DNA of 64,000 bases, taken from positions 2,977 to 66,976 of the forward strand of contig JBBTSM010000010.1 of the NCBI GenBank assembly GCA_038064675.1, given 5' to 3'. Below, piece after piece: positions 782 through 28,144 of this stretch. The DNA is from Patescibacteria group bacterium (lineage in GTDB: Bacteria; Patescibacteriota; Patescibacteriia; UBA9934). How positions within the stretch are numbered: the first letter of the stretch is position 1; each line of letters opens with the position of its first letter. The notes under the pieces are model-generated. The model saw nothing but the letters and a program-made list of their open reading frames with translations, ran no database searches and was not told the DNA's origin. The position numbers and the translations under genes were made by a program.

Positions 782-3718
782 CTAGGCTGGTCTTGCATAC
801 GGGCAGATGTCTTTAAAGTCGCAGTATTGGCAGTGTGGGCCTGGCGTTGCTTGGAATGTGCTTGTGCGAATCTTCTCCATGCTATCGCGAATCTGGAGCT
901 TGAGCTTTTCCTTGTCTTTATCCGTTGGCTCGAAGCTGACGGCGGTGTTCGATTCCAAGTAGTAGTACGTGAGCTTTTTGACGACGAGGGGTGGCACGAA
1001 GCTTTCTTCTGCGGCGATGGCGTACAGCACAAGCTGACGGCGGTCGTCCCAATCGAGCTTCGCCTTTGGCGTGCCGGTCTTGTAGTCGATGATTTCGATT
1101 CCGCCCTCTACATCGTCAATTCGGTCGATACGACCTTTCACCAGAATGCCGTCGATTTTAAGCGTGAATCCTTTTTCGATGAATTTTGGTGATGGCGGAT
1201 TCTCCGTAACGACGCGATAGTATTCCTTCATGATCTCTGTGCCACGAGCGTGGTATTCGTCGCGTGTGTTGTCGTCCGGATACCACTCGTCGATCCATGA
1301 TCGATCATACATGTCGAGCAGATCCTTTATCGTCGGCAACGCGATTGATTCGGTAGCGCCACCAAAAAGCGTTGCTTGATGCGCGGCTTTCGCAGCAATG
1401 ATGCGCTCCATGAACGCCTGGAGCGCATTGTGCATGGACTTTCCAAAGCTCATCTGGTGCTTGCCATACGACGGCACACCGATGATATGCGCGTACTTGT
1501 ACTGCAACGGACAGGTACTGAACGCCGCGATCTGCGAGAAGCTGATTTTGTCGGGAATGTGAATGTTCGCGTCACCGGTTGGCTTCTTTCCTACCTCGAG
1601 CGCCAAACTATCGGCAATGTTCTCCGGTCGAGCCACGCTGATCGCGTTCGTGAAGCCGAGCTCATCCAAGAATCGCGAGATTTTTCGCTTTCGCGATCCG
1701 CCGTAATCTTCCGCGCTCATCAAGTACAAGCCCTCCTTTGCACGAGTCATCGCCACATAAAACAGTCGACGCTCTTCTGCGACGTGATCGTTCCCCTCAA
1801 CTTCTTCCTTCATCAATCCCAGCGGGAAATCGATCGCCTGGGATCGGCCAACTGATGGAAATCGCTGTTCTACCAGGTTGATGACGAATACGTAGCGGAA
1901 CTCGAGGCCTTTCGATCCATGCACAGTCATCACTGAAACAACGTCCGGCCCTTCCTCAGGGTCCTGCGCCACAGCGCCGTCCTCCCCTGCCGCGCGTTCA
2001 GCATCGAACTCTTCGATGAATCGTGGGAGTGTTGCGTCGTCGTTCATCGCGACGAATCGCTTTAGTCGGTTAAAGAATCGCTCGAGGAATCGATAGAGCT
2101 CTTGCTGCTCCATTTCTGATGCGTGCTGACAATCGCCGAGTAATCCCGTCTCCTTCATCATCGTCACGAACAATTCAGTAATCGGTAATCGCTTTGCCTT
2201 ATTTCGGAGCTCGGCGATTTTCTGTTGGAGGTCGATAATGGTGTTTCGACCATGCATCGAAATTCGTGCAGCATCGGCGTACGTCAAAAGATCGAACAAC
2301 GACATTCCTTTTCTGCGAGCGTAGAACATGAGCGCGGTGAGATCCTCCTGCGATAGCCCCAGCCGAGGATGCGAAAGAATGCGGTACAACGATGGCGAGT
2401 CGTGCGGCGCGTTGATGACGCGAAGGTAACACAGCGCATCAAGAATAATCGGCATGGTGTACAGGCCAGACAACGCCATGAATCGATATGGAATACCGGC
2501 GCGCTCGAGAGCCTCGAGGAACGGATCAACGTGGTCGTTTCCGCGCGCAAGGATCGCAAAATCCTTCCAACTTGCGCCAGATTCGTCGTGCAACTTCGTG
2601 ATCGTTTCAACGACTGTGGCGACCTCGTCTTCAAGCGTTGCAGCGTGAATATGATGCACGTTTCCGGCGTGTTCGATATTCGAGATCAGTTGTTTCGATA
2701 ATCCTTCCGAAATTTCGAGCCGATGTGGATTGTTCTTGGTGATCGACGAATACGCAACGTCGAGAATCCCTCGGCCGCTCCGATAGTTGTGCACGAGAAC
2801 GATCTTTTTCGTATCAGGAAAATCCGATCGGAACGTAAGAATGTTCGCGAGTGCTGCACCGCGGAATTTATAAATCGCTTGATCGTCGTCTCCCACGATT
2901 GTGAGGTTATTCCTTGGAGCCGCAAGAAGTTTTACGAGCTCGTACTGCACGCTGTTTGTATCTTGGAACTCGTCGACCACAATATACGTGAATCGCTTCC
3001 GGTACTCCGCGAGAATGTTTGGACGAGTCTTGAACAGCTCGACGGTGTATGCGAGCAGATCACCGAAGTCGAGTGCGTCTTCTGCGATAAGGATGTCTTG
3101 ATACGTTTTGTATGCTCGAGCAACTTCGCGGTGCTTTTCCCATTCGAGTCGTTCTTCTTCTGGCAGCGAATCAAACGCCTCTTCCGATCCCGAAGTAATC
3201 GTTGAGATCTGGTTCTCAACATTCGCAATGTATTGGTCCGGCGTAATCCCCTCGTCTTTTGCTCGTGAGAAATGCGAGAGGAGGAGTTTGAAGAATTTGG
3301 TTGGAGTACCCCGAGGCTTGTAGTAATCGAGCTTGAAATCAGCGAGATGACGGCGCATGAACAGCCAACCATCAACCTCAGACGCAACCGTGAAATCTTG
3401 CGGAATTCCAATGTCTACCCCGTGTTCTCGAAGAACCTTTTCGCAGAATGCGTGAAACGTAGAGATCGATAAATCAACGTATCCCATTGGCAACAACACA
3501 TCCACACGCTCTTCCATTTCATTCGCGGCCTTATCGGTAAACGTCAGGGCCAAGATATTCTCCGGCATCGCTTTCCCCTGCTCAATGAGCCATGCAATAC
3601 GTTTTGTAATCACCGTGGTCTTCCCCGTTCCCGCGCCAGCAATAATCATGAGCGGTCCATCGCCGTGCATTACCGCTTGTTGCTGTTCGGCGTTGAGACC
3701 TTCGAAAAGATTAGACAT
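782..3718 (-). CDS. UvrD/PcrA-family SF1 DNA helicase fused to a C-terminal PD-(D/E)XK Cas4/AddB-like nuclease domain with a 4-Cys cluster
   Basis: 978 aa. Walker A AGAGTGKT, motif II VVDEFQDTN, motif III TIVGDDDQAIYKFRGA, NYRS, and motif VI VAMTRAKEGLYL. C-terminus has GRIDRID...EIIDYKTG...QLVLYA plus Cys in FSTCPLQY and CQYCDFKDIC, a RecB/Cas4-type nuclease with an Fe-S cysteine set. Confidence 0.9.
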   Translation of the reverse strand: MSNLFEGLNAEQQQAVMHGDGPLMIIAGAGTGKTTVITKRIAWLIEQGKAMPENILALTFTDKAANEMEERVDVLLPMGYVDLSISTFHAFCEKVLREHGVDIGIPQDFTVASEVDGWLFMRRHLADFKLDYYKPRGTPTKFFKLLLSHFSRAKDEGITPDQYIANVENQISTITSGSEEAFDSLPEEERLEWEKHREVARAYKTYQDILIAEDALDFGDLLAYTVELFKTRPNILAEYRKRFTYIVVDEFQDTNSVQYELVKLLAAPRNNLTIVGDDDQAIYKFRGAALANILTFRSDFPDTKKIVLVHNYRSGRGILDVAYSSITKNNPHRLEISEGLSKQLISNIEHAGNVHHIHAATLEDEVATVVETITKLHDESGASWKDFAILARGNDHVDPFLEALERAGIPYRFMALSGLYTMPIILDALCYLRVINAPHDSPSLYRILSHPRLGLSQEDLTALMFYARRKGMSLFDLLTYADAARISMHGRNTIIDLQQKIAELRNKAKRLPITELFVTMMKETGLLGDCQHASEMEQQELYRFLERFFNRLKRFVAMNDDATLPRFIEEFDAERAAGEDGAVAQDPEEGPDVVSVMTVHGSKGLEFRYVFVINLVEQRFPSVGRSQAIDFPLGLMKEEVEGNDHVAEERRLFYVAMTRAKEGLYLMSAEDYGGSRKRKISRFLDELGFTNAISVARPENIADSLALEVGKKPTGDANIHIPDKISFSQIAAFSTCPLQYKYAHIIGVPSYGKHQMSFGKSMHNALQAFMERIIAAKAAHQATLFGGATESIALPTIKDLLDMYDRSWIDEWYPDDNTRDEYHARGTEIMKEYYRVVTENPPSPKFIEKGFTLKIDGILVKGRIDRIDDVEGGIEIIDYKTGTPKAKLDWDDRRQLVLYAIAAEESFVPPLVVKKLTYYYLESNTAVSFEPTDKDKEKLKLQIRDSMEKIRTSTFQATPGPHCQYCDFKDICPYARPA

Positions 3719-3761
3719 AGAGATGAAAAGTTGCTAATCTTAGCCAGCACATGGGTGTATT

Positions 3762-4163
3762 ATGCGTTTTCGTGCGACGGCCGTTCGTGAACTTTCGGAG
3801 ATGTTTCGCTTCAATTCTCCCGCGTTTGGAAATCTGGGCCCGCAGGATCGGGTTCTGTTCATGGATCTTTACACTGAGGGATCCGATTTCGCTTGTGCAG
3901 GAATGGTTCTTTTTACGCGTGGAGATCGGCGCGGCGCACTTCTTCTGGCCGACCGCTGGAGCGATGGAAGGATCCTGATCACTACGTGGATCGATGCTTC
4001 GTTTTTTTACACACTTACCGATCCGCGAGTGCGTTCTCTCGGAGCTGACGCTGTTGCGCAATACTGCACCATCGTCAATCCGCACAAGCTCAACGCGGAA
4101 GAAATCTTCTCGCATGTCATGCGAACCATGCTCGAACGTCCTGCCAAGAACATGGGAAGTTGA
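3762..4163 (+). CDS. hypothetical protein (133 aa)
   Basis: ORF divergent from the helicase gene, followed by a GC hairpin terminator. No recognisable motif. Confidence 0.35.
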   Translation: MRFRATAVRELSEMFRFNSPAFGNLGPQDRVLFMDLYTEGSDFACAGMVLFTRGDRRGALLLADRWSDGRILITTWIDASFFYTLTDPRVRSLGADAVAQYCTIVNPHKLNAEEIFSHVMRTMLERPAKNMGS

Positions 4164-4225: not shown

Positions 4226-5441
4226 AAAGCGACGCGACGCTCTGCGCAACAGAAACAGCGAACTGAATTCCTGGTTGAGTGAGAAGGTATCCACCGACGC
4301 CGAACATGATGAGGACGTGAACGGCAAGGACGGCGGCAAAGATCTTTTGATGCTTTGACATCGGGCCCGTCGCTTCTTCTGCGTGGTCTTGTGCGGTAAG
4401 TGTTATCACTGCACGAACGTAATATGCGCTCAGAATTGCGAGAATCGCAAAGACGCACAGTGCGAGAACGAGATAGGCTTGCAACGCGTAGCCAACGCCG
4501 ATCAGTTCGCTGACGAAGAGCATCGAGAATGGTGCGCCGAGGAGAGAGGCAAAGAGCGCGCCGCAGAGATATTTGATTACTGGTCGGGTGCGAACAGATG
4601 CAGAATCTTGTGCCGCATACCACAGTCCCGAATGCGCTACTGCCTGACCACCAAGGTGAATGAGCGCTGGGATTGTTCCTGCTGGACCTGCGCCAACCAT
4701 GAAGGCAACTAGTCCAATGTGTTCGATACTTGAAATGGAAAGGAGCTGACGGTTCTTTTTAAACACGAGTTTAATGACGGAGATAAGCAAGAGGAGAACG
4801 CCAAAGCCAAGGAAGATGTTGTCTGTCCATGTGCCGCCGTCTGCCATCGCAACGTCTGCAATCTGTTTTAAGCGAAGAAGCGCAATGAAAAATACTACTG
4901 GCGCCGCTGTGCCAACAAAGCTGGTAAATCGCGTCTTCATGAAGAACAACCCGAACGCGCCAAGAATACCCACGGCAACCGCGGCGAATGCAAACTGAAC
5001 CAGCTGAGCATTGAGTGTGCTGGTTGCAAGAGTTTCAGCAACGCCACCAAAGGAAAGCGCGCTCCATGAGGACACACCAGCGTCCATCTGCGCCTTGAGG
5101 AACAGCGCCGCTCCCACAACGAAAAGCCCAACGGAACCGATACACAGCGCGAGAATGGTCTTTCGTGCTTTTTCGTTTGCTGCACGTTCCGCATGAAGCG
5201 CAAGACACGTCGCACAGATGACGGCTAATGCAAATGCGAGTGCAAGCACGGCGAGATTGTCGGTGAATAGTGTGGCGATGACGGCGATGAATCCTGCAAT
5301 AGTCACTGAGAGTTCGGATCGATGTGCTCGTGTTCCTCCGATGGTGAGAATGAATGTGCCAACTCCGAGTACTCCTACCAACACCAATTGGCACCACACA
5401 AGAAGATCTACGTGCCAAAGAGAAAGAAAGGCATTCAACAT
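4224..5441 (-). CDS. proton-conducting antiporter-like membrane subunit (NuoN/MrpD/HyfF-like, Proton_antipo_M family)
   Basis: 405 aa polytopic membrane protein. SIEHIGLVAFMVGAG and ALIHLGGQAVAHSGLWYAA resemble the conserved core of complex I/Mrp antiporter subunits. Confidence 0.55.
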   Translation of the reverse strand: MLNAFLSLWHVDLLVWCQLVLVGVLGVGTFILTIGGTRAHRSELSVTIAGFIAVIATLFTDNLAVLALAFALAVICATCLALHAERAANEKARKTILALCIGSVGLFVVGAALFLKAQMDAGVSSWSALSFGGVAETLATSTLNAQLVQFAFAAVAVGILGAFGLFFMKTRFTSFVGTAAPVVFFIALLRLKQIADVAMADGGTWTDNIFLGFGVLLLLISVIKLVFKKNRQLLSISSIEHIGLVAFMVGAGPAGTIPALIHLGGQAVAHSGLWYAAQDSASVRTRPVIKYLCGALFASLLGAPFSMLFVSELIGVGYALQAYLVLALCVFAILAILSAYYVRAVITLTAQDHAEEATGPMSKHQKIFAAVLAVHVLIMFGVGGYLLTQPGIQFAVSVAQSVASL

Positions 5442-20105: not shown

Positions 20106-20630
20106 ATGATCGCTATTAACAAGCCAGCACCAAGCTTTGAAAACATTACGTCGTACACCGAGGGAGAGTTCACCAAAACCAGTTTGAGCACCTACAAAGG
20201 TGGTTGGGTGGTGCTGTTCTTCTACCCTCGCGACTTCACGTTCATCTGCCCTACTGAAATTAAAGGTTTCCAAAAGCACGAAGCAGACTTTGCTGCACTC
20301 AACGCAAAAGTCGTCGGCGCATCCACCGACAGTGAATGGAGTCACAAAGCATGGTTTGAACGCGATCTTCCAGAAGTGGCCTACCCTATTCTTGCGGACA
20401 CCACGCAAAAAGTTTCCCGCGACTACGGCGTATTAAATGAAGACGACGGCAGCAGCGATCGCGGACTCTTCATCATCGACCCAGAAGGCGTGGTGAAATT
20501 CGCACTTGTCTCCGCAGGATCGGTCGGCCGATCGGTAAAGGAAGTAATTCGTGTACTGACAGCTCTGCAGTCTGGCGAGCTTTGTCCGGTGGAATGGGAA
20601 CCTGGCGAGAAGACATTAGGAAAGGCGTAA
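20106..20630 (+). CDS. peroxiredoxin (AhpC/TSA family, typical 2-Cys)
   Basis: FFYPRDFTFICPTEI holds the peroxidatic Cys; resolving Cys in GELCPVEW near the C-terminus. Confidence 0.92.
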   Translation: MIAINKPAPSFENITSYTEGEFTKTSLSTYKGGWVVLFFYPRDFTFICPTEIKGFQKHEADFAALNAKVVGASTDSEWSHKAWFERDLPEVAYPILADTTQKVSRDYGVLNEDDGSSDRGLFIIDPEGVVKFALVSAGSVGRSVKEVIRVLTALQSGELCPVEWEPGEKTLGKA

Positions 20631-20647
20631 ATTCTTCATCAAAAACA

Positions 20648-20683
20648 GTAGGTCAGAGCCGCGTGGCTCTGACCTACTTTTGA
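20648..20683 (+). terminator. hairpin gtaggtcagagccgcgtggctctgacctac plus tttt, terminator of the prx gene
   Basis: Perfect inverted repeat followed by a T-run. Confidence 0.7.
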
Positions 20684-21852
20684 ATACAAATCTGTCGTGA
20701 GTCTCGATTGTCCGAAAACGTCAGTCGCCAGTACGTATCGTCTTCCTGAACGCGCAGTTCCATTCCAATCTCCTTACAGATTCTGGAGAAGACTTCTCGA
20801 CAAAGCAGAAATCGACTTTCCAACGTATTTGTTAATGGAGTTGGCGGTGTAACCGTGAGCTTTTGTAAATAAAATTCAAACTCCTCTGCCGCACGTTTTG
20901 TGATGCTCGGCGCAACTCCCGTCTGTACAGCATTCCGAATGGATTTCAGGATCTCCTCTTCACTTTTATTTCGAATATCTGCGGTAAAAAAATCACTATA
21001 TGCTTGCACCGCACGAATGTTTTTAAGAAAACCATGTGCGATTCTTCGGCAGGAAGTAGTAATATACGGATGCGTTCGCAAAAAACTTTGCATTCCAAAC
21101 TTTCTTACAAAGAAATACGTAAGTACAAGCTCCTCTCCAACCCACGCCGAGGGATCGAATCCTCCGATGCGAACATATGAAGCAGCACTCAAAACAGTGT
21201 TCCCGCACCATGCGCTAACAAAAGCATCCTCCGGAGCGTCAGGACCGTATGCACTTTCCAAATTCTCTACCAATCTTACTAAATCACCAAAATACGGAAT
21301 TTCATATGCGGCGTCAATATAATGCTGCGACTGCGTACTCAACAGCGCCTTTCCACGGTGAAGAGCAACAAGACTCTCAAGATACTCTGGATCGATCTTC
21401 AGTGCATCGGCGTCATTATTCACGAGCAAGGTCTCCAAACCAGATCCACGCAAAAGCGCAAGGTCATTCAGAATCTTCCGAAGAAGTCCAATTGGCGCCT
21501 TCTGTGAAAATGTCCATTCAAAAAAACACACTCGAACCGTGTGTGATTTTTGAAATTCACGAACCTGATTTTTCAACCTATTCACTGATGAATCTTCTTC
21601 CCTCCGGTTCAGGAACAGAAGAACCTCGTAACGTTGTTTTTTAATTGTCTGTTTCTCGTACAGCGTCAAAAGCCGTTCGATATTCTGTTCGGATGAATGT
21701 ACGGGGATTAAAACAAAAATGGACGTCCCTGGCACAGCCGGTGGCAGCTGTGCCAGAACATCAGCGAGCGTCTGAACGTATTCAGGATGGTTCTTCTGCT
21801 CGTTCGCAAGATACTCTTGAATCTCATCGACCATACTCAGCTCCATTGCCAT
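20674..21852 (-). CDS. GT-A-like (DXD motif) glycosyltransferase-family-2-like protein; stand-alone paralog of the C-terminal domain of the giant protein at 22829..27748
   Basis: SIFVLIPVHSSEQNIERLL (GT2-like first strand), LLVNNDADALKIDPEYLESLV, SAASYVRIGGFD. These align with giant-protein segments FEILLYVNWPK, LVIANDADTVYGSPEYLVDVL, RGSSYAAIGGN. Confidence 0.55.
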   Translation of the reverse strand: MAMELSMVDEIQEYLANEQKNHPEYVQTLADVLAQLPPAVPGTSIFVLIPVHSSEQNIERLLTLYEKQTIKKQRYEVLLFLNRREEDSSVNRLKNQVREFQKSHTVRVCFFEWTFSQKAPIGLLRKILNDLALLRGSGLETLLVNNDADALKIDPEYLESLVALHRGKALLSTQSQHYIDAAYEIPYFGDLVRLVENLESAYGPDAPEDAFVSAWCGNTVLSAASYVRIGGFDPSAWVGEELVLTYFFVRKFGMQSFLRTHPYITTSCRRIAHGFLKNIRAVQAYSDFFTADIRNKSEEEILKSIRNAVQTGVAPSITKRAAEEFEFYLQKLTVTPPTPLTNTLESRFLLCREVFSRICKEIGMELRVQEDDTYWRLTFSDNRDSRQICIQK

Positions 21853-21855
21853 TTC

Positions 21856-22251
21856 TTATTCTTGCGACTCACCTTTCGTCGCTTTGTCCAAGGCAGAGTG
21901 ATATACGGTTAATGCATCCAAACGCGCCCGTTGCTCATCCAAGCCTTCCGTGCCCGCAAGAGGAGACCGCGCCTCTGCAGAACCCTCACGACTCATCCTA
22001 TTTGCCAAGGCTGCGTAATACGCGTCCCAATCCACTACTGATTGTGGCCCCGCTTGACGAAGTGCTTCTGCCTTAGCCATAGCCTCTTCCTTTGTCCCTG
22101 GATAAACAGCAACAGTGGCAGCATGTTCATGTGCTGCAAGTAACGTATCGAATGCCTTCTTCTGACCCGGCGTATACAAAATTTGGTCTGGTTCGTGAGT
22201 CCTATCCCCTTCCGGCACACGCTCAATAAACGGATCTTTTGGTTCTGGCAT
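21856..22251 (-). CDS. hypothetical protein (131 aa), co-transcribed upstream of the GT-A-like gene
   Basis: 4-bp gap to the downstream gene. No motif. Confidence 0.4.
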   Translation of the reverse strand: MPEPKDPFIERVPEGDRTHEPDQILYTPGQKKAFDTLLAAHEHAATVAVYPGTKEEAMAKAEALRQAGPQSVVDWDAYYAALANRMSREGSAEARSPLAGTEGLDEQRARLDALTVYHSALDKATKGESQE

Positions 22252-22316
22252 ACGATGGTATTAAGAATCTAAAGCAATTCTAACAGATACAGGAAATATT
22301 CTCTGTTGTTATTCAC

Positions 22317-22412
22317 AGAAAGAGGTGATCCGCGCTCTGACGGCATTACAATCTGGCGAGCTGTGTCCGGTGGAATGGGAACCGGGTGAGAAGACCTTAG
22401 GGAAGGTGTAGA
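22317..22412 (+). pseudogene. Remnant 3' fragment (last ~31 codons plus stop) of a second, diverged peroxiredoxin gene
   Basis: Encodes S-KEVIRALTALQSGELCPVEWEPGEKTLGKV*. The prx gene ends SVKEVIRVLTALQSGELCPVEWEPGEKTLGKA*. About 80% nucleotide identity, differences mostly synonymous. No upstream ORF. Confidence 0.7.
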
Positions 22413-22443
22413 ATAACGGTGAGGCAATTAATGCTGCATCAAT

Positions 22444-22785
22444 ATGAGCAATGAGCTCCCATCACAAAGAGAGGTTGTCGAGGCAGAAATTCAAAGAGTA
22501 ATCGCCGACTACCGCGAACAAGAAAAACTTGCAGCGAGCCCAGATTACAATATTCGATACGGACCAAAGTATTTTATTGGACTAAACAAAGGACGATTTG
22601 CTTTTGCGGCACTAGGCGTTCCGCAAACGCGCGATGGTGGCGCACCATTCTATCCAAACTGGACTGTTGAAGATTTTCGACATGTCTGCCGAGAACTCGG
22701 GATCGACTACGAAGCAGCAGATACATTTGCGAACCAAGAGGTTGCCCAAAGAACACAGCGAGGTGCAGGAAAAGAGAATAATTAG
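22444..22785 (+). CDS. hypothetical protein (113 aa)
   Basis: ORF followed by the hairpin terminator at 22797. No motif. Confidence 0.4.
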   Translation: MSNELPSQREVVEAEIQRVIADYREQEKLAASPDYNIRYGPKYFIGLNKGRFAFAALGVPQTRDGGAPFYPNWTVEDFRHVCRELGIDYEAADTFANQEVAQRTQRGAGKENN

Positions 22786-22796
22786 CGGGTACAAAA

Positions 22797-22822
22797 AATC
22801 AGAGCCGTGCGGCTCTGATTTG
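22797..22822. terminator. hairpin aaatcagagccgtgcggctctgattt, between convergent genes
   Basis: Core tcagagccgYgYggctctga nearly identical to the hairpin at 20655. Confidence 0.6.
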
Positions 22823-22828
22823 TTATTG

Positions 22829-25800
22829 CTAGAACACCGGAGGAACAAATGGCCCCAATGGGTTATTTTTTAACTTCGCACCCTTTCTGTTGCTTTCTCG
22901 ATACTCAAGAAGTCTCCTGCGGAGAACCGATGTATCAGTTGGGATTACCGTAATCCACTCAGGATGAGGTGAGATATCGGCCTTTATGCCAAGGAAATCC
23001 AATGTCTGCCTCAAATACTCTTCACCTTCAAGACCGATTTGTCCGCTTCCGTGATAGTAGAAGGTTTTTTGTGCAATATGCATGAACGCTTCAATTTCAT
23101 CACGGATTCTGGCATTGAATTGTTGAACAATTTCATCGCTCTCCGAAGCCTCGGCGAGCTTTCGGACATCGAGATTTTCAGGTTGCGCGTGTTCCGCCAT
23201 TCCACCTCCTCGAACATTTTTTCTGTCGTTAAAATCAGACCACGTGTACGCAACAAGCTCTCCACTTTTGAACTTATCGATTTCACGACGTGGGTCGACC
23301 ATGACCCAATCCTTGTTCGAATATCCAACCGTTCTCTTTCCACCACGAGCGACTGAGAAGAGACGACCGAATTCGATATCTGCCCAGAAATCCTTGGTAC
23401 GATTTCCACCGATTGCGGCATAACTTGATCCGCGCAAAATCGTATTTCGTCCCTGAGTCATAATGTTCCCAGTCTTTGAGCGTGAAATTGCTTCGATAAA
23501 CTGCGCAAACCTCATCGCAACATGGAAGGTTGGATTCTTTTCGTAAACCTCCGGATCGAGATCCTGCCTACCGACAAGAGCGTCCAAATCCGGTCTCTTC
23601 TTCATGTCATCAAGGACATCGACAAGATACTCTGGAGATCCATAGACTGTATCTGCATCGTTGGCGATGACGAGAATTTCCCGGTCTCCTGATCGTCGAA
23701 GGTTTCGTCGCAACGCGAGATCGAATACTTTTCTTTTAATCCAACCGACTTCAGGTTTTCCGACCTTAATTTCCTCAGAGTATACCTTCAGTGCAACTTT
23801 AGGGTGATCTTTTCTGAAACGCTCGATCTCCGAGAATGTTTTGTTTGCATCTGCGCCTTTTGGCCAGTTGACGTAAAGAAGTATCTCAAACTTCGCGGTT
23901 TTTCCGGCCCAAACTGAAGCACCTTTCCGGTCGCGGTTCACCGCATACGTCTCCAGAGTTCTGTAAATATTTGCATGCTCACCGGCACCAGCAGCCGCCA
24001 ACGCAACACAAGCTTCTACGCTATCACCCATCTTGTCTTTGTTTTGAGCGTCAAGCGTATCGAGTTCCTTTTTGTAGCCAGGATAGCGCCTTTCCATGTC
24101 TTCGAAATACCATTCCATCTCCTTTCGCGGATTGAGAGGCGCATTTGGATCCTCTTTCAATCGAGGAGACATATCTGCACGAAGTGCCTGTTCGCTCCCC
24201 TCGGTTGCATTTGGGTAATACGGATACAGCGCAATAGCAGAATCTCCACCTTCTAATTCTGGCGTCTGATTCCCCGCTTCTGGCCCTGCAAATTCACCGG
24301 GCGGCAAAGGTGGTGGTGCAACTGGAGGCATAAACGGACCCGCCTCACCTCGAGGCCCCTTCTTCATCGGCTCCATCGGTTGACGACCGCGAATTGGGAC
24401 GAACCAAGGGACGATGACTGGCGGAACTTCGTGGCCTGGGAGATCGATGTTCGTGACGTGGCGAGCGACGGATTCAGCGGTGTCGGTGGAGGTAATTCCG
24501 GAATGGACTCCAGCGCCCTGCGCTGTTGCAAGAATACTGAAGTGGTTCACGCCAGCGGCATCGAAGCCTTTAGAAACTCCAACCTCGGCAGTGTGATACA
24601 GCGGAATAACCTTTCCGTGATCAATGCGGAAGAACGTCTTGCCGATGTCCGATGTCGGATCGATATGAATCTGCCCGTGTTGATCCGGTAATACTTCAAT
24701 AACACTATTCTGCGCGTGATCGTTCATCGTGAGCAACACACGAATTTTGCCCTCAACAAGTTCTGCCGGAGCATTATCTGTTAATCCGCTATGGAATGAA
24801 CCGTCCTTCGCCATGTGACCCATGGTCATGACGATCTGGCCATCTGAATCCAAACCCATTGGGTGCACGCCATCGCCGGTCACTCCGCCCCATTCAAGTT
24901 TCAATTCGTTGTGATCTGCGCCAAGCCAACGCTTAAGCTCCTCTGAAAAATGCATCGGCGTGTCGTTGTCCATCCAGTGATCGCGATGGATTTTCTGCAT
25001 TGCATGATGACGCAACCATTCCCATGTGCTTTCTTTGGTACTGGTGGTGGCGCCTGAATTGATCCACTGATCTTTCTCCACAATATTCGCGCCTGCACCT
25101 CGCAACGTAGCCTCCGACGCAGCATCAAGATGACCCGATGCATCGATGTGCAGGCCAGATGCAATTGCATGATGATCCGCGGCAGACTCAAGAACAAAGC
25201 TTCCATCCGCCTGCGGCACAAGATCGGTTCCCGGAGGAGTCGTGAACGATCCCCCGCCAATCATTTCCATATTCGGTGAACCGACGGCAGCAAGCGGGGC
25301 ATGATTAAAGTACGCCATGAGCGCATGCCACGCACTGCCGATGGTGGTGTCTCCACCCGTACCAAGCGCCCACAGGTCGTGAGCGACGGTACCAACAACG
25401 GCACCGATCGCCATCGTAGAAAGTCCGCGCTTCAATGCGACACGGTTCGACCACTCTGCGAACTTCTTCTGCTGCACGCGCGCTTTGCTGGTCTCCTTGC
25501 CATATAAGGAAACTTCACTCAGCTTATAGATATAGTCAAAGTACTCCTGAAATCCGGCGACGGTCTTATTCTTTACTTTCTCTCCGTATGCATCTTCGTG
25601 TGCTTTCCGAAGGGCGGCTTTCAAACTTGCACGCGCAACATCGAGATTCAACCGTTCAACTTCAGCCTCCGCAACGCCTGTATATTTCAGCAAGTCGATC
25701 TTCTCGCGATCACTGATACGAATACGCGCCTCTATATTCGCAAGGACTTCAGTAGCATTTTCGATCGTGACATCACCACGCAACTCTTTGCTATCCGCAC

Positions 25801-27748
25801 TCAAGAATCCGCGAACACTTTCCGCGAGCCCCTTTGCACTTTCACGAGCAAGCGCAAACTTCTCCATCTCTGCGCGACGAGGCTGAACCTCGCGACCACT
25901 CCGCAGCGCTTGGATTTCCTTTTCTAACGAATACCGCTCCATCGGCTGCCACCATCCAAGCTTTCCCTGTCTCGCTAATAATTCTGCCTCAACCTTATTC
26001 GAATCGTCATTCTTCGTCTCCCCACCAAGCGCCATCTGGCGTTCGTGAAGAGCGCGCTCGCTGTTCAATCGGCCCTTTTCTTTCCATGCGCTGTACGCTC
26101 CAGTGACAACTGCGGAACCTCCAAACGTAAGTGCCTTTGCCGCCGTGTTTTTGAGACCGGCCATAATTCCAATTCCCCACATGGACGCTGCCGCGCCAAG
26201 CGCGATACCGATTTCGTTTCGAAACGCTATGGCAATGGCGCCTCCAGCCACAGGGTGACGACTACTCCATTGATCAAGCTTTTCAAGTGTTTTATCAATA
26301 AAATTCTTTTCTCGTTCCGTCCGAGCGCCAAGCTTCATTCGACCAACGACAATTTCAAGATCAATATCCAGATTCTCCATCCCATTCACTGCCGCGGCAG
26401 CCTGACGAACCTGTTCCGCAAGCTTGTCCAAGTTATCCGCATACAACATGCCACGCCCTTTTGCTTCTCCGCCCAATGCATTCGCACTCGCGAAAATTTT
26501 ATCCCGACGTAATTGCAATTCCTCCTTGCTCATTTCAACGTTCGAGGCATATTCCTTCACCAACTCCAACAGATCAACACGAACCGCCTCTTCTTCTGGC
26601 GAATACTTCGTGACGCCTTCTGCATCTTTCTTTCCAAACTCCGTTCTTCGTTCTCCGTGCGCACCTTCGTTGTGCAAAAATTCATCACTTCGTTGCACCA
26701 AGCGTTCAAGCATCGCGCCAGTTGCCTTTTCGTGGTCTGCACGACTCAGCCCCTTACCAACGAAAACGTTGCGCGTAGACAGCACCTGGTTGCGTAATTT
26801 TCCAATCCCACGCTGTCGATATTCCTCGTGCGCAAGATTATGCTTGAAAATCTTATCCCACGTTCCCGCATCTCGCTTTTCTGCGTGCAATGATTCATCT
26901 ACGTCGTCACTGATAATATCCTCGGCCGTATCAGAGATATCGCCTGCGCCGTACCGCAAATGCAAAGGAACGCCCTTTTTCGCGACGGGCTTTTCGCTTT
27001 CGTCATCCTCAAGCTCAACCATCACTGGCGTTGCTGGGGGTTTTGCACCCGTCTCAACAACTTTGCGCTCCATAGAATCCGCGGTCAATTTCTCGAGATT
27101 CACAGAAACTCCACTCCCGTCTACATCAGCTGGGAGTGCTTTGACGCCCTCAGACATCGCTACAACCTTAGCAACAGGTATCGCAAGAATTTCACCTTTC
27201 GGTCCTTTTAACAGCACCGGGCTACCATCATCTCCAGACACAACACCAAGAATTCTCCATCGCTCCACTGCGGCCCCGCGCAACAAAAAAACATCTTCAC
27301 CGGCACGCCGTGCATACGCAGCCTGAGCGCGGCGAGCCTCATCTTCTGTCCATGATTCTGCCGACCAACGATGTCGTGGGCGCCTGTACGTTTCACCACG
27401 AGATACAGCATTATCGTATCCGCTCCGCATTTCGTCATCAGACAAAATTCCGTACGCATCGGCGGCCTCCTTAAATCTCCGGCTCGCCTCAGCTCGAACA
27501 GCGGCCGATTCCTTGTCGTGTCTATCAGGATGAAATTTCATCGCAAGCTTAAGGAAAGCAGCCTTAATTTCATCTTTACTCGCATTAGCGCGAACGCCCA
27601 AAGCATCGTACAGGGTCTTCGGCGCAGATTCACTACTTGATTCCGCGGTATCCGTCGCCTCGTGCGAACCGCTGTTTTTTTTATAGCCCCCGGCAACTCC
27701 CAGTCCGAAGAACGTATCTTTTCCTAACGGCATTTTATACATCAACAT
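22829..27748 (-). CDS. giant multidomain protein (1639 aa): N-terminal DnaJ J-domain, coiled-coil region, Gly/Ala-rich TM segments, proline-rich linker, C-terminal GT-A-like (DXD) domain
   Basis: J-domain TLYDALGVRANASKDEIKAAFLKLAMKFHPDRH...YGILSDDEMRSGYD with HPD. Hydrophobic AGGAIAIAFRNEIGIALGAAASMWGIGIMAG and GLSTMAIGAVVGTVAHDLWALG. PFMPPVAPPPLPPGEF linker. C-terminal LVIANDADTVYGSPEYL. Confidence 0.8.
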   Translation of the reverse strand: MLMYKMPLGKDTFFGLGVAGGYKKNSGSHEATDTAESSSESAPKTLYDALGVRANASKDEIKAAFLKLAMKFHPDRHDKESAAVRAEASRRFKEAADAYGILSDDEMRSGYDNAVSRGETYRRPRHRWSAESWTEDEARRAQAAYARRAGEDVFLLRGAAVERWRILGVVSGDDGSPVLLKGPKGEILAIPVAKVVAMSEGVKALPADVDGSGVSVNLEKLTADSMERKVVETGAKPPATPVMVELEDDESEKPVAKKGVPLHLRYGAGDISDTAEDIISDDVDESLHAEKRDAGTWDKIFKHNLAHEEYRQRGIGKLRNQVLSTRNVFVGKGLSRADHEKATGAMLERLVQRSDEFLHNEGAHGERRTEFGKKDAEGVTKYSPEEEAVRVDLLELVKEYASNVEMSKEELQLRRDKIFASANALGGEAKGRGMLYADNLDKLAEQVRQAAAAVNGMENLDIDLEIVVGRMKLGARTEREKNFIDKTLEKLDQWSSRHPVAGGAIAIAFRNEIGIALGAAASMWGIGIMAGLKNTAAKALTFGGSAVVTGAYSAWKEKGRLNSERALHERQMALGGETKNDDSNKVEAELLARQGKLGWWQPMERYSLEKEIQALRSGREVQPRRAEMEKFALARESAKGLAESVRGFLSADSKELRGDVTIENATEVLANIEARIRISDREKIDLLKYTGVAEAEVERLNLDVARASLKAALRKAHEDAYGEKVKNKTVAGFQEYFDYIYKLSEVSLYGKETSKARVQQKKFAEWSNRVALKRGLSTMAIGAVVGTVAHDLWALGTGGDTTIGSAWHALMAYFNHAPLAAVGSPNMEMIGGGSFTTPPGTDLVPQADGSFVLESAADHHAIASGLHIDASGHLDAASEATLRGAGANIVEKDQWINSGATTSTKESTWEWLRHHAMQKIHRDHWMDNDTPMHFSEELKRWLGADHNELKLEWGGVTGDGVHPMGLDSDGQIVMTMGHMAKDGSFHSGLTDNAPAELVEGKIRVLLTMNDHAQNSVIEVLPDQHGQIHIDPTSDIGKTFFRIDHGKVIPLYHTAEVGVSKGFDAAGVNHFSILATAQGAGVHSGITSTDTAESVARHVTNIDLPGHEVPPVIVPWFVPIRGRQPMEPMKKGPRGEAGPFMPPVAPPPLPPGEFAGPEAGNQTPELEGGDSAIALYPYYPNATEGSEQALRADMSPRLKEDPNAPLNPRKEMEWYFEDMERRYPGYKKELDTLDAQNKDKMGDSVEACVALAAAGAGEHANIYRTLETYAVNRDRKGASVWAGKTAKFEILLYVNWPKGADANKTFSEIERFRKDHPKVALKVYSEEIKVGKPEVGWIKRKVFDLALRRNLRRSGDREILVIANDADTVYGSPEYLVDVLDDMKKRPDLDALVGRQDLDPEVYEKNPTFHVAMRFAQFIEAISRSKTGNIMTQGRNTILRGSSYAAIGGNRTKDFWADIEFGRLFSVARGGKRTVGYSNKDWVMVDPRREIDKFKSGELVAYTWSDFNDRKNVRGGGMAEHAQPENLDVRKLAEASESDEIVQQFNARIRDEIEAFMHIAQKTFYYHGSGQIGLEGEEYLRQTLDFLGIKADISPHPEWITVIPTDTSVLRRRLLEYRESNRKGAKLKNNPLGPFVPPVF

Positions 27749-27765
27749 ACTTTTACACTAACGCG

Positions 27766-28065
27766 TTAGCTAAGGTACGACGTACGGAAATCCATGAGCG
27801 TTCGCGCAAGCACTTCCTGATAGTTTGGCACGTTGCTCACGAAAAACTCGCGAACAACGTCTGGTTCGGCATCGGCGTCCATAAGGTCGTTGAGCTCCTC
27901 AACTTTGTCTGTCTCGAGTAAGGCGACCATCTCTGCATTCAAACGCTCGCCAATTCTCGTCATGAGGTCTGCGCGAAGCTCGGCAAGCACCGCTTCGTCT
28001 ACCGATGTAAGCCCTCGTTCCACGAGCAAATTCTCTACGAACTGTTCAAGCGTTGGAGCTGCCAT
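27766..28065 (-). CDS. small acidic hypothetical protein (~100 aa) immediately upstream of the giant gene
   Basis: Start MAAPTLEQF; 18-bp gap to the giant ORF; acidic helical composition. Confidence 0.45.
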   Translation of the reverse strand: MAAPTLEQFVENLLVERGLTSVDEAVLAELRADLMTRIGERLNAEMVALLETDKVEELNDLMDADAEPDVVREFFVSNVPNYQEVLARTLMDFRTSYLS

Positions 28066-28144
28066 AGCAAAAAGCAAAGAGTATTAGCTCAAGTATAACA
28101 AAATGCACACCCCATCGATCCGATGAGGTGTGCATGATTCCACA

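Follow-up and report, generated by a model that had tools for sequence, protein, structure and literature searches.

Two paralogous, predicted GT2-like glycosyltransferase modules, one free-standing and one fused to a giant protein, in a mosaic locus of a Patescibacteria genome

A 64 kb chromosomal stretch (in the following, the window) from a metagenome-assembled genome of a tiny-genome member of the Patescibacteria (candidate phyla radiation, CPR) contains the gene of a giant protein of 1639 amino acids (aa) and, close to it, a two-gene cassette encoding a small hydrophilic protein of 131 aa and a stand-alone protein of 392 aa, here called GT392. GT392 is homologous to the C-terminal part of the giant, and both are predicted to be divergent glycosyltransferases (GT) related to the GT2 enzymes. 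Comparison with related contigs revealed that the body of the giant, its GT module and the cassette each have a different closest relative. We regard it as somewhat probable that the two copies are ancient GT2-like paralogues, probably active, which serve a shared glycosylation pathway and are located in a recombining, lineage-variable island. The sequence of GT392 is identical to the NCBI entry 'hypothetical protein AAB473_05275 [Patescibacteria group bacterium]'.

Homology, fold and family of the two modules

The initial annotation had pointed out three collinear motif blocks common to the 392-aa protein and the giant and had interpreted the former as a stand-alone paralog of a GT-A-like domain of the latter. 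The blocks are indeed present and collinear in both translations, and the proposed relationship is supported by pairwise alignment, profile comparison and structural modeling. One BLASTP high-scoring segment pair, obtained in a single comparison, joins residues 71-231 of GT392 to residues 1283-1448 of the giant with 28% identity and E=4e-8. By comparison of hidden Markov models with hhalign, for which seven stand-alone proteins and five giant C-termini were used, residues 7-383 of GT392 were matched to residues ~1207-1607 of the giant over 367 columns (probability 98.85%, E=4.1e-17). The similarity thus reaches beyond the residues ~1280-1480 named originally. Additionally, intermediates from related contigs bridge GT392 and the giant over ~320 residues with E-values of 1e-13 to 1e-14. 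Because the pairwise, intermediate and profile-profile matches agree, the whole 392-aa protein can be assigned to the last 430 residues of the giant. The true start of GT392 is perhaps Met7, six codons downstream (21834-21852); most close homologues begin there ('MVDEI') or within one residue.

An AlphaFold2 (AF2) model of GT392, based on a 12-sequence alignment, exhibits a predicted local distance difference test (pLDDT) score of 87.2 and a predicted template modelling (pTM) score of 0.87. Foldseek comparison of this model with the PDB gave RmlT as best match (E=1.6e-9), followed by TarS, PcManGT, TarP, K4CP and hyaluronan synthase down to E=1e-6, all with a probability of 1.0, although the TM-scores are only ~0.4 and the sequence identity to the structural matches is 10-14%. 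In total, 139 PDB matches have E<=0.001; the matches listed are GT-A enzymes, with GT2 members at the top. When a sequence profile was searched against the PDB, the first strand-helix-strand of GT392 was also aligned to the N-terminus of TarS (E=0.0015). Judged from the model, the module is a divergent GT2-like glycosyltransferase with GT-A fold, and thereby of known fold and chemistry class. For the module of the giant, the GT-A fold is assigned by homology to GT392.

Neither GT392 nor the giant is matched by the curated GT2 models PF00535 and PF13641, and the sole Pfam match of the giant is DnaJ. The best Pfam match of GT392, CHGN, has an E-value of 0.0024 and lies below the cut-off; the NCBIfam GT matches are sub-threshold as well. 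Among the relatives, PF00535 was matched by five of the 55 giants scanned (3/29 and 2/26) at the E-value limits used. Two of these giants, P0031 and P0034, were examined in detail and pass the PF00535 cut-off inside the same domain. These matches link the family to GT2 transitively only. NCBI lists one relative as 'glycosyltransferase [Candidatus Buchananbacteria]'.

A profile was searched exhaustively against 1.84 billion cluster representatives. At E<=1e-3, 1,972 proteins were recovered, and 381 remained at E<=1e-30; counted at 50% identity, the family amounts to ~2,000 clusters. This search was the informative one. With the mixed alignment A1, a word-indexed protein search yielded nine proteins, and a scan of GTDB genomes with the stand-alone alignment A2 added one further locus, L007. 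The members that carry a source name, a few in number, are all from Patescibacteria. No dedicated model for the domain family was found in Pfam or NCBIfam, and the literature search gave no published description of it.

Most of the best 150 family members have a length of 1,000-2,900 aa. Among the sequences retrieved, the domain occurs C-terminally in 71, internally in 49, as a stand-alone protein (<=560 aa) in 43 and N-terminally in two, and at least five giants contain it as a tandem double copy. The partner domains are variable, too. A Ser/Thr protein kinase follows the GT module in 12 of the 26 'internal' giants (alignment A7, P0044-P0153 set) and also in the giant of contig L001 (1-2724). 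The WaaP/Kdo kinase family is matched by two of these 26 giants as well, and the giant of L009 (2-4729) carries an FkbM-type methyltransferase. DUF362 and a calpain-type peptidase were each matched by single family giants. Across the aligned giants, no other part is conserved as widely as the GT module, whose catalytic residues are invariant or nearly so. The varied positions and partners, the tandem copies and the exchange of modules among relatives described below support the suggestion of the initial annotation that domain shuffling or a diversifying enzyme family is present here.

Three sequences, P0008, P0009 and P0010, resemble stand-alone modules of the giant type. P0008 and P0009 proved to be pieces of split or truncated giant genes and, being fragments, were left out of the count of free copies. 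In L005 (1-2684) and L006 (1-1465) these two are split by frameshifts or by gene-calling, and each protein carries on in the adjoining open reading frames (ORFs).

An identity matrix and a rough neighbour-joining tree calculated from identity distances place GT392 in an 18-member clade that consists of stand-alone proteins only (356-401 aa). The module of the giant belongs to a separate clade of mostly C-terminally fused domains. On this basis, the two copies are classified as ancient paralogues, homologous to each other and members of different clades. Since they are 28% identical and fall into different deep clades, they do not go back to a recent local duplication. A third free-standing paralogue of 460 aa was found in L001 (3812-5194, - strand). 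With the second copies in the tandem-double giants it shares 49-55% identity, and its occurrence points towards gene fission or fusion within the family.

Conserved residues and probable catalysis

Conservation of single residues was counted across 164 domain sequences of the family. D147 and D149 of the NDAD motif as well as R269 and R270 (numbering of GT392) are invariant in 164/164 domains, and N82, G122, D130, Y157, N218 and G231 are nearly invariant. The Arg-Arg pair and an N-terminal helical 'YL..E...YPEY' element are typical of the family, and with N82, D130, NDAD, E-D and RR a family signature is now available. Within the subfamily of GT392, 100 columns are invariant among seven sequences that are 45-65% identical.

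About 92 residues past the DXD motif, the consensus exhibits a Glu-Asp pair, E240-D241. Position 240 is occupied by Glu in 128 of the 164 domains and by Ala in 24, and the giant of the window belongs to the Ala set. At position 241, Asp is found in 153 domains and Glu in eight, seven of the latter being members of the GT392 subclade. GT392 and its six closest relatives hence carry Glu-Glu at 240/241 and the clade of the giant Ala-Asp. The pair was related to E197/D198 of RmlT by sequence spacing and motif context. In RmlT, mutation of either residue abolishes activity (PMC11697029).

We infer that both copies are probably active, since the NDAD motif and a carboxylate at the putative base position are kept; GT392 and the module of the giant would then probably be inverting glycosyltransferases. 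Alternatively, GT392 could be a non-catalytic paralogue, i.e. a pseudo-enzyme, activator or specificity subunit, that partners the active module of the giant. It is kept beside a giant with the same module, its subclade has exchanged the near-universal Asp241 for Glu, and it shares only 47% identity with its counterpart in the close relative L003, compared to 96% for MetRS. The exchange of Asp for Glu retains the carboxylate, however, and the DXD motif, N82, D130, R269/R270 and E240 are strictly kept in the subfamily. Because of the mosaic pattern of the locus, the low identity between the relatives is also better explained by gene replacement than by decay. A non-catalytic role of GT392 is considered unlikely.

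Mosaic structure of the locus

The locus is embedded in housekeeping genes, namely F-type ATP synthase, TatD, CvpA, MetRS, RsmI, DUF3179, AhpC, M17 aminopeptidase and ProRS; its features are compiled in Table 1. Both ORFs of the cassette are located as the initial annotation had given them, and the cassette is not restricted to the window. The contigs L001, L002 and L003 share the gene order giant, small protein (80-104 aa), stand-alone GT, convergent AhpC, DUF3179, RsmI and MetRS. In the distant contigs L009/L010, a giant with internal GT domain is accompanied, two genes downstream, by a stand-alone member of the same subfamily, with 27% identity.

According to the housekeeping proteins, L003 is a very close relative (MetRS 96%, RsmI 94%, AhpC 98%; flanking housekeeping proteins 81-98%), L001 is intermediate (AhpC 92%, DUF3179 77%) and L002 more distant (MetRS 77%, AhpC 83%). 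The body of the giant is 74-82% identical to L003 (about 77%), ~68-71% to L001 and 33-54% to L002. Its GT module, in contrast, is 62-94% identical to L002 (overall 76%) and only 18-38% to L003 and L001 (about 30%). Sliding-window identity locates the switch of the partner at ~aa 1131, inside the proline-rich linker. The stand-alone GT shows a third pattern with 65% identity to L001, 47% to L003 and 48% to L002. The locus is therefore a three-way mosaic, in which the body of the giant resembles L003, its GT module L002 and the cassette L001.

The giant itself is composed of a J domain, weakly hydrophobic segments, a beta-rich middle domain, the proline-rich linker and the GT module. The J domain was recognized by Pfam PF00226 with E=7.5e-18, contains the HPD motif within 'KFHPDRH' and matches J domains of the PDB at E=1e-12. 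Of the 29 giants scanned, only that of the window possesses it, and the orthologue in L002 starts ~110 residues later, without the J domain. Gly/Phe, zinc-finger and C-terminal DnaJ domains were not found in the giant, and the scores of the DnaJ equivalog models of NCBIfam are far below the cut-offs. Since the other domains of DnaJ are missing, the giant is regarded as a J-domain fusion and not as a DnaJ orthologue. The presence of the J domain suggests recruitment of DnaK to this putative membrane protein. Generally, the conserved beta-rich domain of the giants is preceded by one to three weakly hydrophobic segments that are Gly/Ala-rich. In the window, this domain is 74-82% identical to L003 and was modeled with a pLDDT of 72.5; the model gave no significant fold match in the PDB. 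Because the J domain, the kinase and the GT work with cofactors or partners from the cytoplasm, the enzymatic C-terminus is expected on the cytoplasmic side.

The small proteins are poorly conserved. For the 131-aa protein, whose positional homologues in L001-L003 have 80-111 aa, the identity is 24-36% with only the N-terminal 'MPEPKDP..ERV' being recognizable, and the sole BLAST match of the 131-aa protein is the copy in L001 (33%, E=4e-9). Neither this protein nor ORF113, which lies between the giant and the cassette, is matched by Pfam or NCBIfam. The small protein follows the stand-alone GT, for which L001 is closest, and not the type of the giant's module, for which L002 is closest. Co-variation as in immunity proteins was not observed: the giant module of L001 is only 29% identical, and in L002 a module of 76% identity coincides with a small protein of 24%. 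In L003, the order is giant, a small protein of 80 aa (3543-3785), a stand-alone GT of 397 aa and a second small protein of 111 aa (5042-5377), with 54% identity between the two small paralogues. Their arrangement around the GT resembles module-plus-partner repeats.

These observations bear on a second alternative, in which the giant is similar to a polymorphic effector whose conserved body delivers a swappable C-terminal GT 'warhead' into a host or competitor cell. The small proteins would then be immunity or chaperone partners, and the stand-alone GT with its small gene an orphan module kept for recombination. Consistent with this, the giant keeps its body and changes its C-terminal module at one defined linker, the gene downstream of it is small and evolves fast, and each of the two GT modules of L003 has a small paralogue behind it. 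Toxins that combine a GT-A glucosyltransferase containing a DXD motif with a central hydrophobic region are known, namely the large clostridial toxins. All cultivated members of the organism's group are reported to be episymbionts. Several findings contradict such a delivery. The N-termini of the giants are hydrophilic without a signal peptide, and no secretion or trafficking domain of Pfam was detected in the 55 giants scanned. Every replacement module comes from one GT family and not from unrelated toxin folds, and the fold matches are housekeeping GT2 enzymes instead of toxin GT families. Moreover, it is the GT module that is conserved most widely in the giants, down to its catalytic residues, GT392 has full length and belongs to an old stand-alone clade instead of being a 5'-truncated orphan, and the small protein does not co-vary with the module. 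Overall, we consider delivery as an effector quite improbable.

The boundaries of the exchanged region were determined by blastn. Nucleotide similarity to L003 ends at the stop codon of AhpC (20632) and resumes at 24356, so that, except for a relic of AhpC, an island of 3.7 kb is left without nucleotide similarity to L003. It comprises the terminator, GT392, the small gene, the AhpC relic, ORF113, the second terminator and the GT module of the giant. The relic, which marks the border of the cassette, forms a direct repeat of 92 nucleotides (nt) with 80% identity on its far side. Compared to the resident AhpC, 22 of 96 nt differ, which corresponds to 15 synonymous and three non-synonymous codon changes. 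From this ratio it can be concluded that both copies were functional genes and diverged in separate genomes until one of them was reduced to a fragment. A homologue of ORF113 is located directly downstream of AhpC in L007; L002 and L003 have no ORF113 between giant and cassette. Only two sites in the window contain the hairpin core TCAGAGCCGCGTGGCTCTGA, compared to 0.05 expected; the palindromic core TCAGAGCCGYGYGGCTCTGA is found once behind GT392/AhpC and once behind the giant/ORF113. Together, AhpC relic, ORF113 and second hairpin suggest that recombination at this locus brought in DNA from a relative. The 64 kb window contains neither a tRNA nor an Rfam RNA as a possible mark of an integration site.

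The bracketing of the cassette by the 3'-end repeats of AhpC and by the hairpin repeats (90% identity) would also be expected if the stand-alone gene had arisen by a recent tandem duplication of the 3' end of the giant together with terminator and 3' end of AhpC. Such an origin has very little probability and is refuted by the placement of the two GT modules in different deep clades, at 28% identity, and by the mostly synonymous differences between relic and resident AhpC. Furthermore, positional orthologues of both GT copies are present in L001-L003. That the motif similarity of GT392 and the giant is due to chance or composition has next to no probability, as nothing except the low pairwise identity speaks for it and the pairwise, profile-profile (E=4e-17) and intermediate matches rule it out.

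Table 1. Coordinates of the features of the locus and its surroundings in the window.
Feature	Position	Strand	Basis
GT392, stand-alone GT-A/GT2-like protein (predicted), 392 aa	20674..21852	-	ORF and translation, AF2 model, Foldseek, seven close homologues
N146-D147-A148-D149 of GT392, DXD-type metal/nucleotide-sugar motif	21406..21417	-	codons read; both Asp invariant in 164/164 domains
Small hydrophilic protein, 131 aa, 3 nt upstream of GT392 (two-gene cassette with GT392)	21856..22251	-	
Giant protein, 1639 aa	22829..27748	-	
J (DnaJ) domain of giant, aa 46-112, HPD motif	27413..27613	-	Pfam PF00226
Conserved beta-rich middle domain of giant, aa 800-1115	24404..25351	-	AF2 model
Proline-rich linker of giant, aa 1116-1206, with recombination breakpoint at ~aa 1131	24131..24403	-	sliding-window identity
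C-terminal GT-A/GT2-like module of giant (predicted), aa 1207-1639	22832..24130	-	hhalign
N1363-D1364-A1365-D1366, DXD-type motif of the giant's module	23651..23662	-	invariant in 29 giants, 164/164 domains
Variable island, 3.7 kb	20633..24355	.	blastn of window against L003, L001, L002, L007
AhpC relic, last 31 codons and stop	22316..22411	+	direct repeat of the intact AhpC 3' end (20535-20630)
ORF113, between giant and cassette, opposite strand	22444..22785	+	
Terminator-like palindromic hairpin between convergent AhpC and GT392	20644..20681	.	
Second copy of hairpin, between ORF113 and the stop codon of the giant	22793..22824	.	
DUF5663 gene directly upstream of giant	27766..28077	-	Pfam PF18908, E=1e-6

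Proposed function and known systems

In the explanation we favor, the soluble GT392 and the copy borne by the giant would both contribute to one glycosylation pathway, on the cytoplasmic face of the membrane. The GT module of the giant, exchanged at the linker, and the cassette of small gene and GT would be replaced independently of each other between close relatives. Such replacement could change the sugar chemistry from lineage to lineage, and the variation might thereby serve glycan diversification. The conserved gene order in L001-L003 and its recurrence in L009/L010 indicate functional coupling of giant and stand-alone GT, and the glycan-type partner domains of the family (second GT copy, FkbM methyltransferase, kinase domains with two matches to the WaaP/Kdo family) are in line with this explanation. 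Genes for sugar-nucleotide synthesis, flippase or polymerase were not found in the locus. A sigma-70 promoter scan upstream of the cassette gave nothing convincing, with fewer sites than in shuffled sequence.

A number of points weigh against this explanation. Neither protein of the window reaches a glycosyltransferase cut-off of Pfam or NCBIfam, and the TM-scores of the structural matches are low. Asn (N82) occupies the position after strand 2 where typical GT2 enzymes have Asp, and the consensus Glu-Asp pair is kept by neither copy of the window, though RmlT needs both residues. Activity, donor and acceptor are beyond what the sequence can tell. The topology is uncertain as well: the hydrophobic segments are weak and Gly/Ala-rich, and the cytoplasmic location of the GT module is an assumption. 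A terminator and an ORF on the opposite strand lie between giant and cassette, which are therefore not co-transcribed, and the assignment to separate clades relies on a neighbour-joining tree that is rough.

The best structural matches are GT2 enzymes of wall teichoic acid decoration, RmlT of L. monocytogenes and TarS and TarP of S. aureus. Similar to these, the modules have a DXD-type motif and an extra C-terminal subdomain after the catalytic domain. The family consensus also contains a putative equivalent of the Glu-Asp pair ~90 residues past the DXD motif, from which both copies of the window depart. They differ in their low sequence identity (10-14%), the Asn after strand 2, their own Arg-Arg pair and their occurrence mostly inside proteins of 1,000-2,900 aa. 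A teichoic-acid context is not evident in the window.

Hypervariable glycosylation islands are known from bacteria in the form of O-antigen, capsule, flagellin and pilin glycosylation loci. As in these, GT genes of the present locus are replaced between close relatives and the housekeeping flanks are conserved, but the units exchanged here include a domain within a giant protein, for which the swap takes place at an internal linker. With polymorphic toxin systems that contain orphan modules, such as CdiA-CT/CdiI and Rhs, the locus shares the conserved body, the C-terminal module swapped at a defined junction, the small fast-evolving downstream gene and the free copy nearby. In contrast to them, the modules belong to one enzyme family and form the best-conserved part, secretion domains were not detected, and the free copy is complete and anciently independent. 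Finally, adhesins can be paired with dedicated glycosyltransferases, as in HMW1A/HMW1C, AIDA-I/Aah, TibA/TibC and the serine-rich-repeat adhesins with Gtf. In such pairs the large protein is the substrate, is exported and has no GT domain of its own. The conservation of a stand-alone GT gene beside a very large protein gene is comparable, whereas the giant described here contains the same GT module and no recognizable export signal.

A more far-reaching interpretation appears doubtful, if possible, at present: Patescibacteria might carry a large, undescribed class of giants with hydrophobic, perhaps membrane-spanning segments, whose GT2-like module, often combined with a kinase, a methyltransferase or another GT, is a swappable cassette. 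Such modules and the free paralogues would make up hypervariable 'glyco-islands' by which the chemistry of the surface or of effectors is set. If true, these islands would determine host range or phage resistance of the episymbionts; in the extreme form of this idea, the giants would be delivered effectors that glycosylate targets of the host cell.

Patescibacteria account for a large share of bacterial diversity, and to our knowledge most of their big genes have no assigned function. The main new result is the mosaic structure of the locus. New as well are the predicted GT2-like identity for a domain of ~2,000 clusters, mostly giants among the best-scoring ones, and the combination of a swappable module with a co-conserved free paralogue. 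If the modules are active, they would give organisms dependent on cell-to-cell contact a compact means of varying their glycosylation. The locus offers natural chimeras and can be considered a lead for the cell-surface or host-interaction biology of the CPR, though not a categorically new system.

A gene of the DUF5663 family precedes the giant both in the window and in L002 (279-572), the copy of the window being 63% identical to that of L002. In L006, a DUF5663 gene (4791-5093) is found downstream of a 1070-aa gene, and the family is perhaps another conserved partner of the giants.

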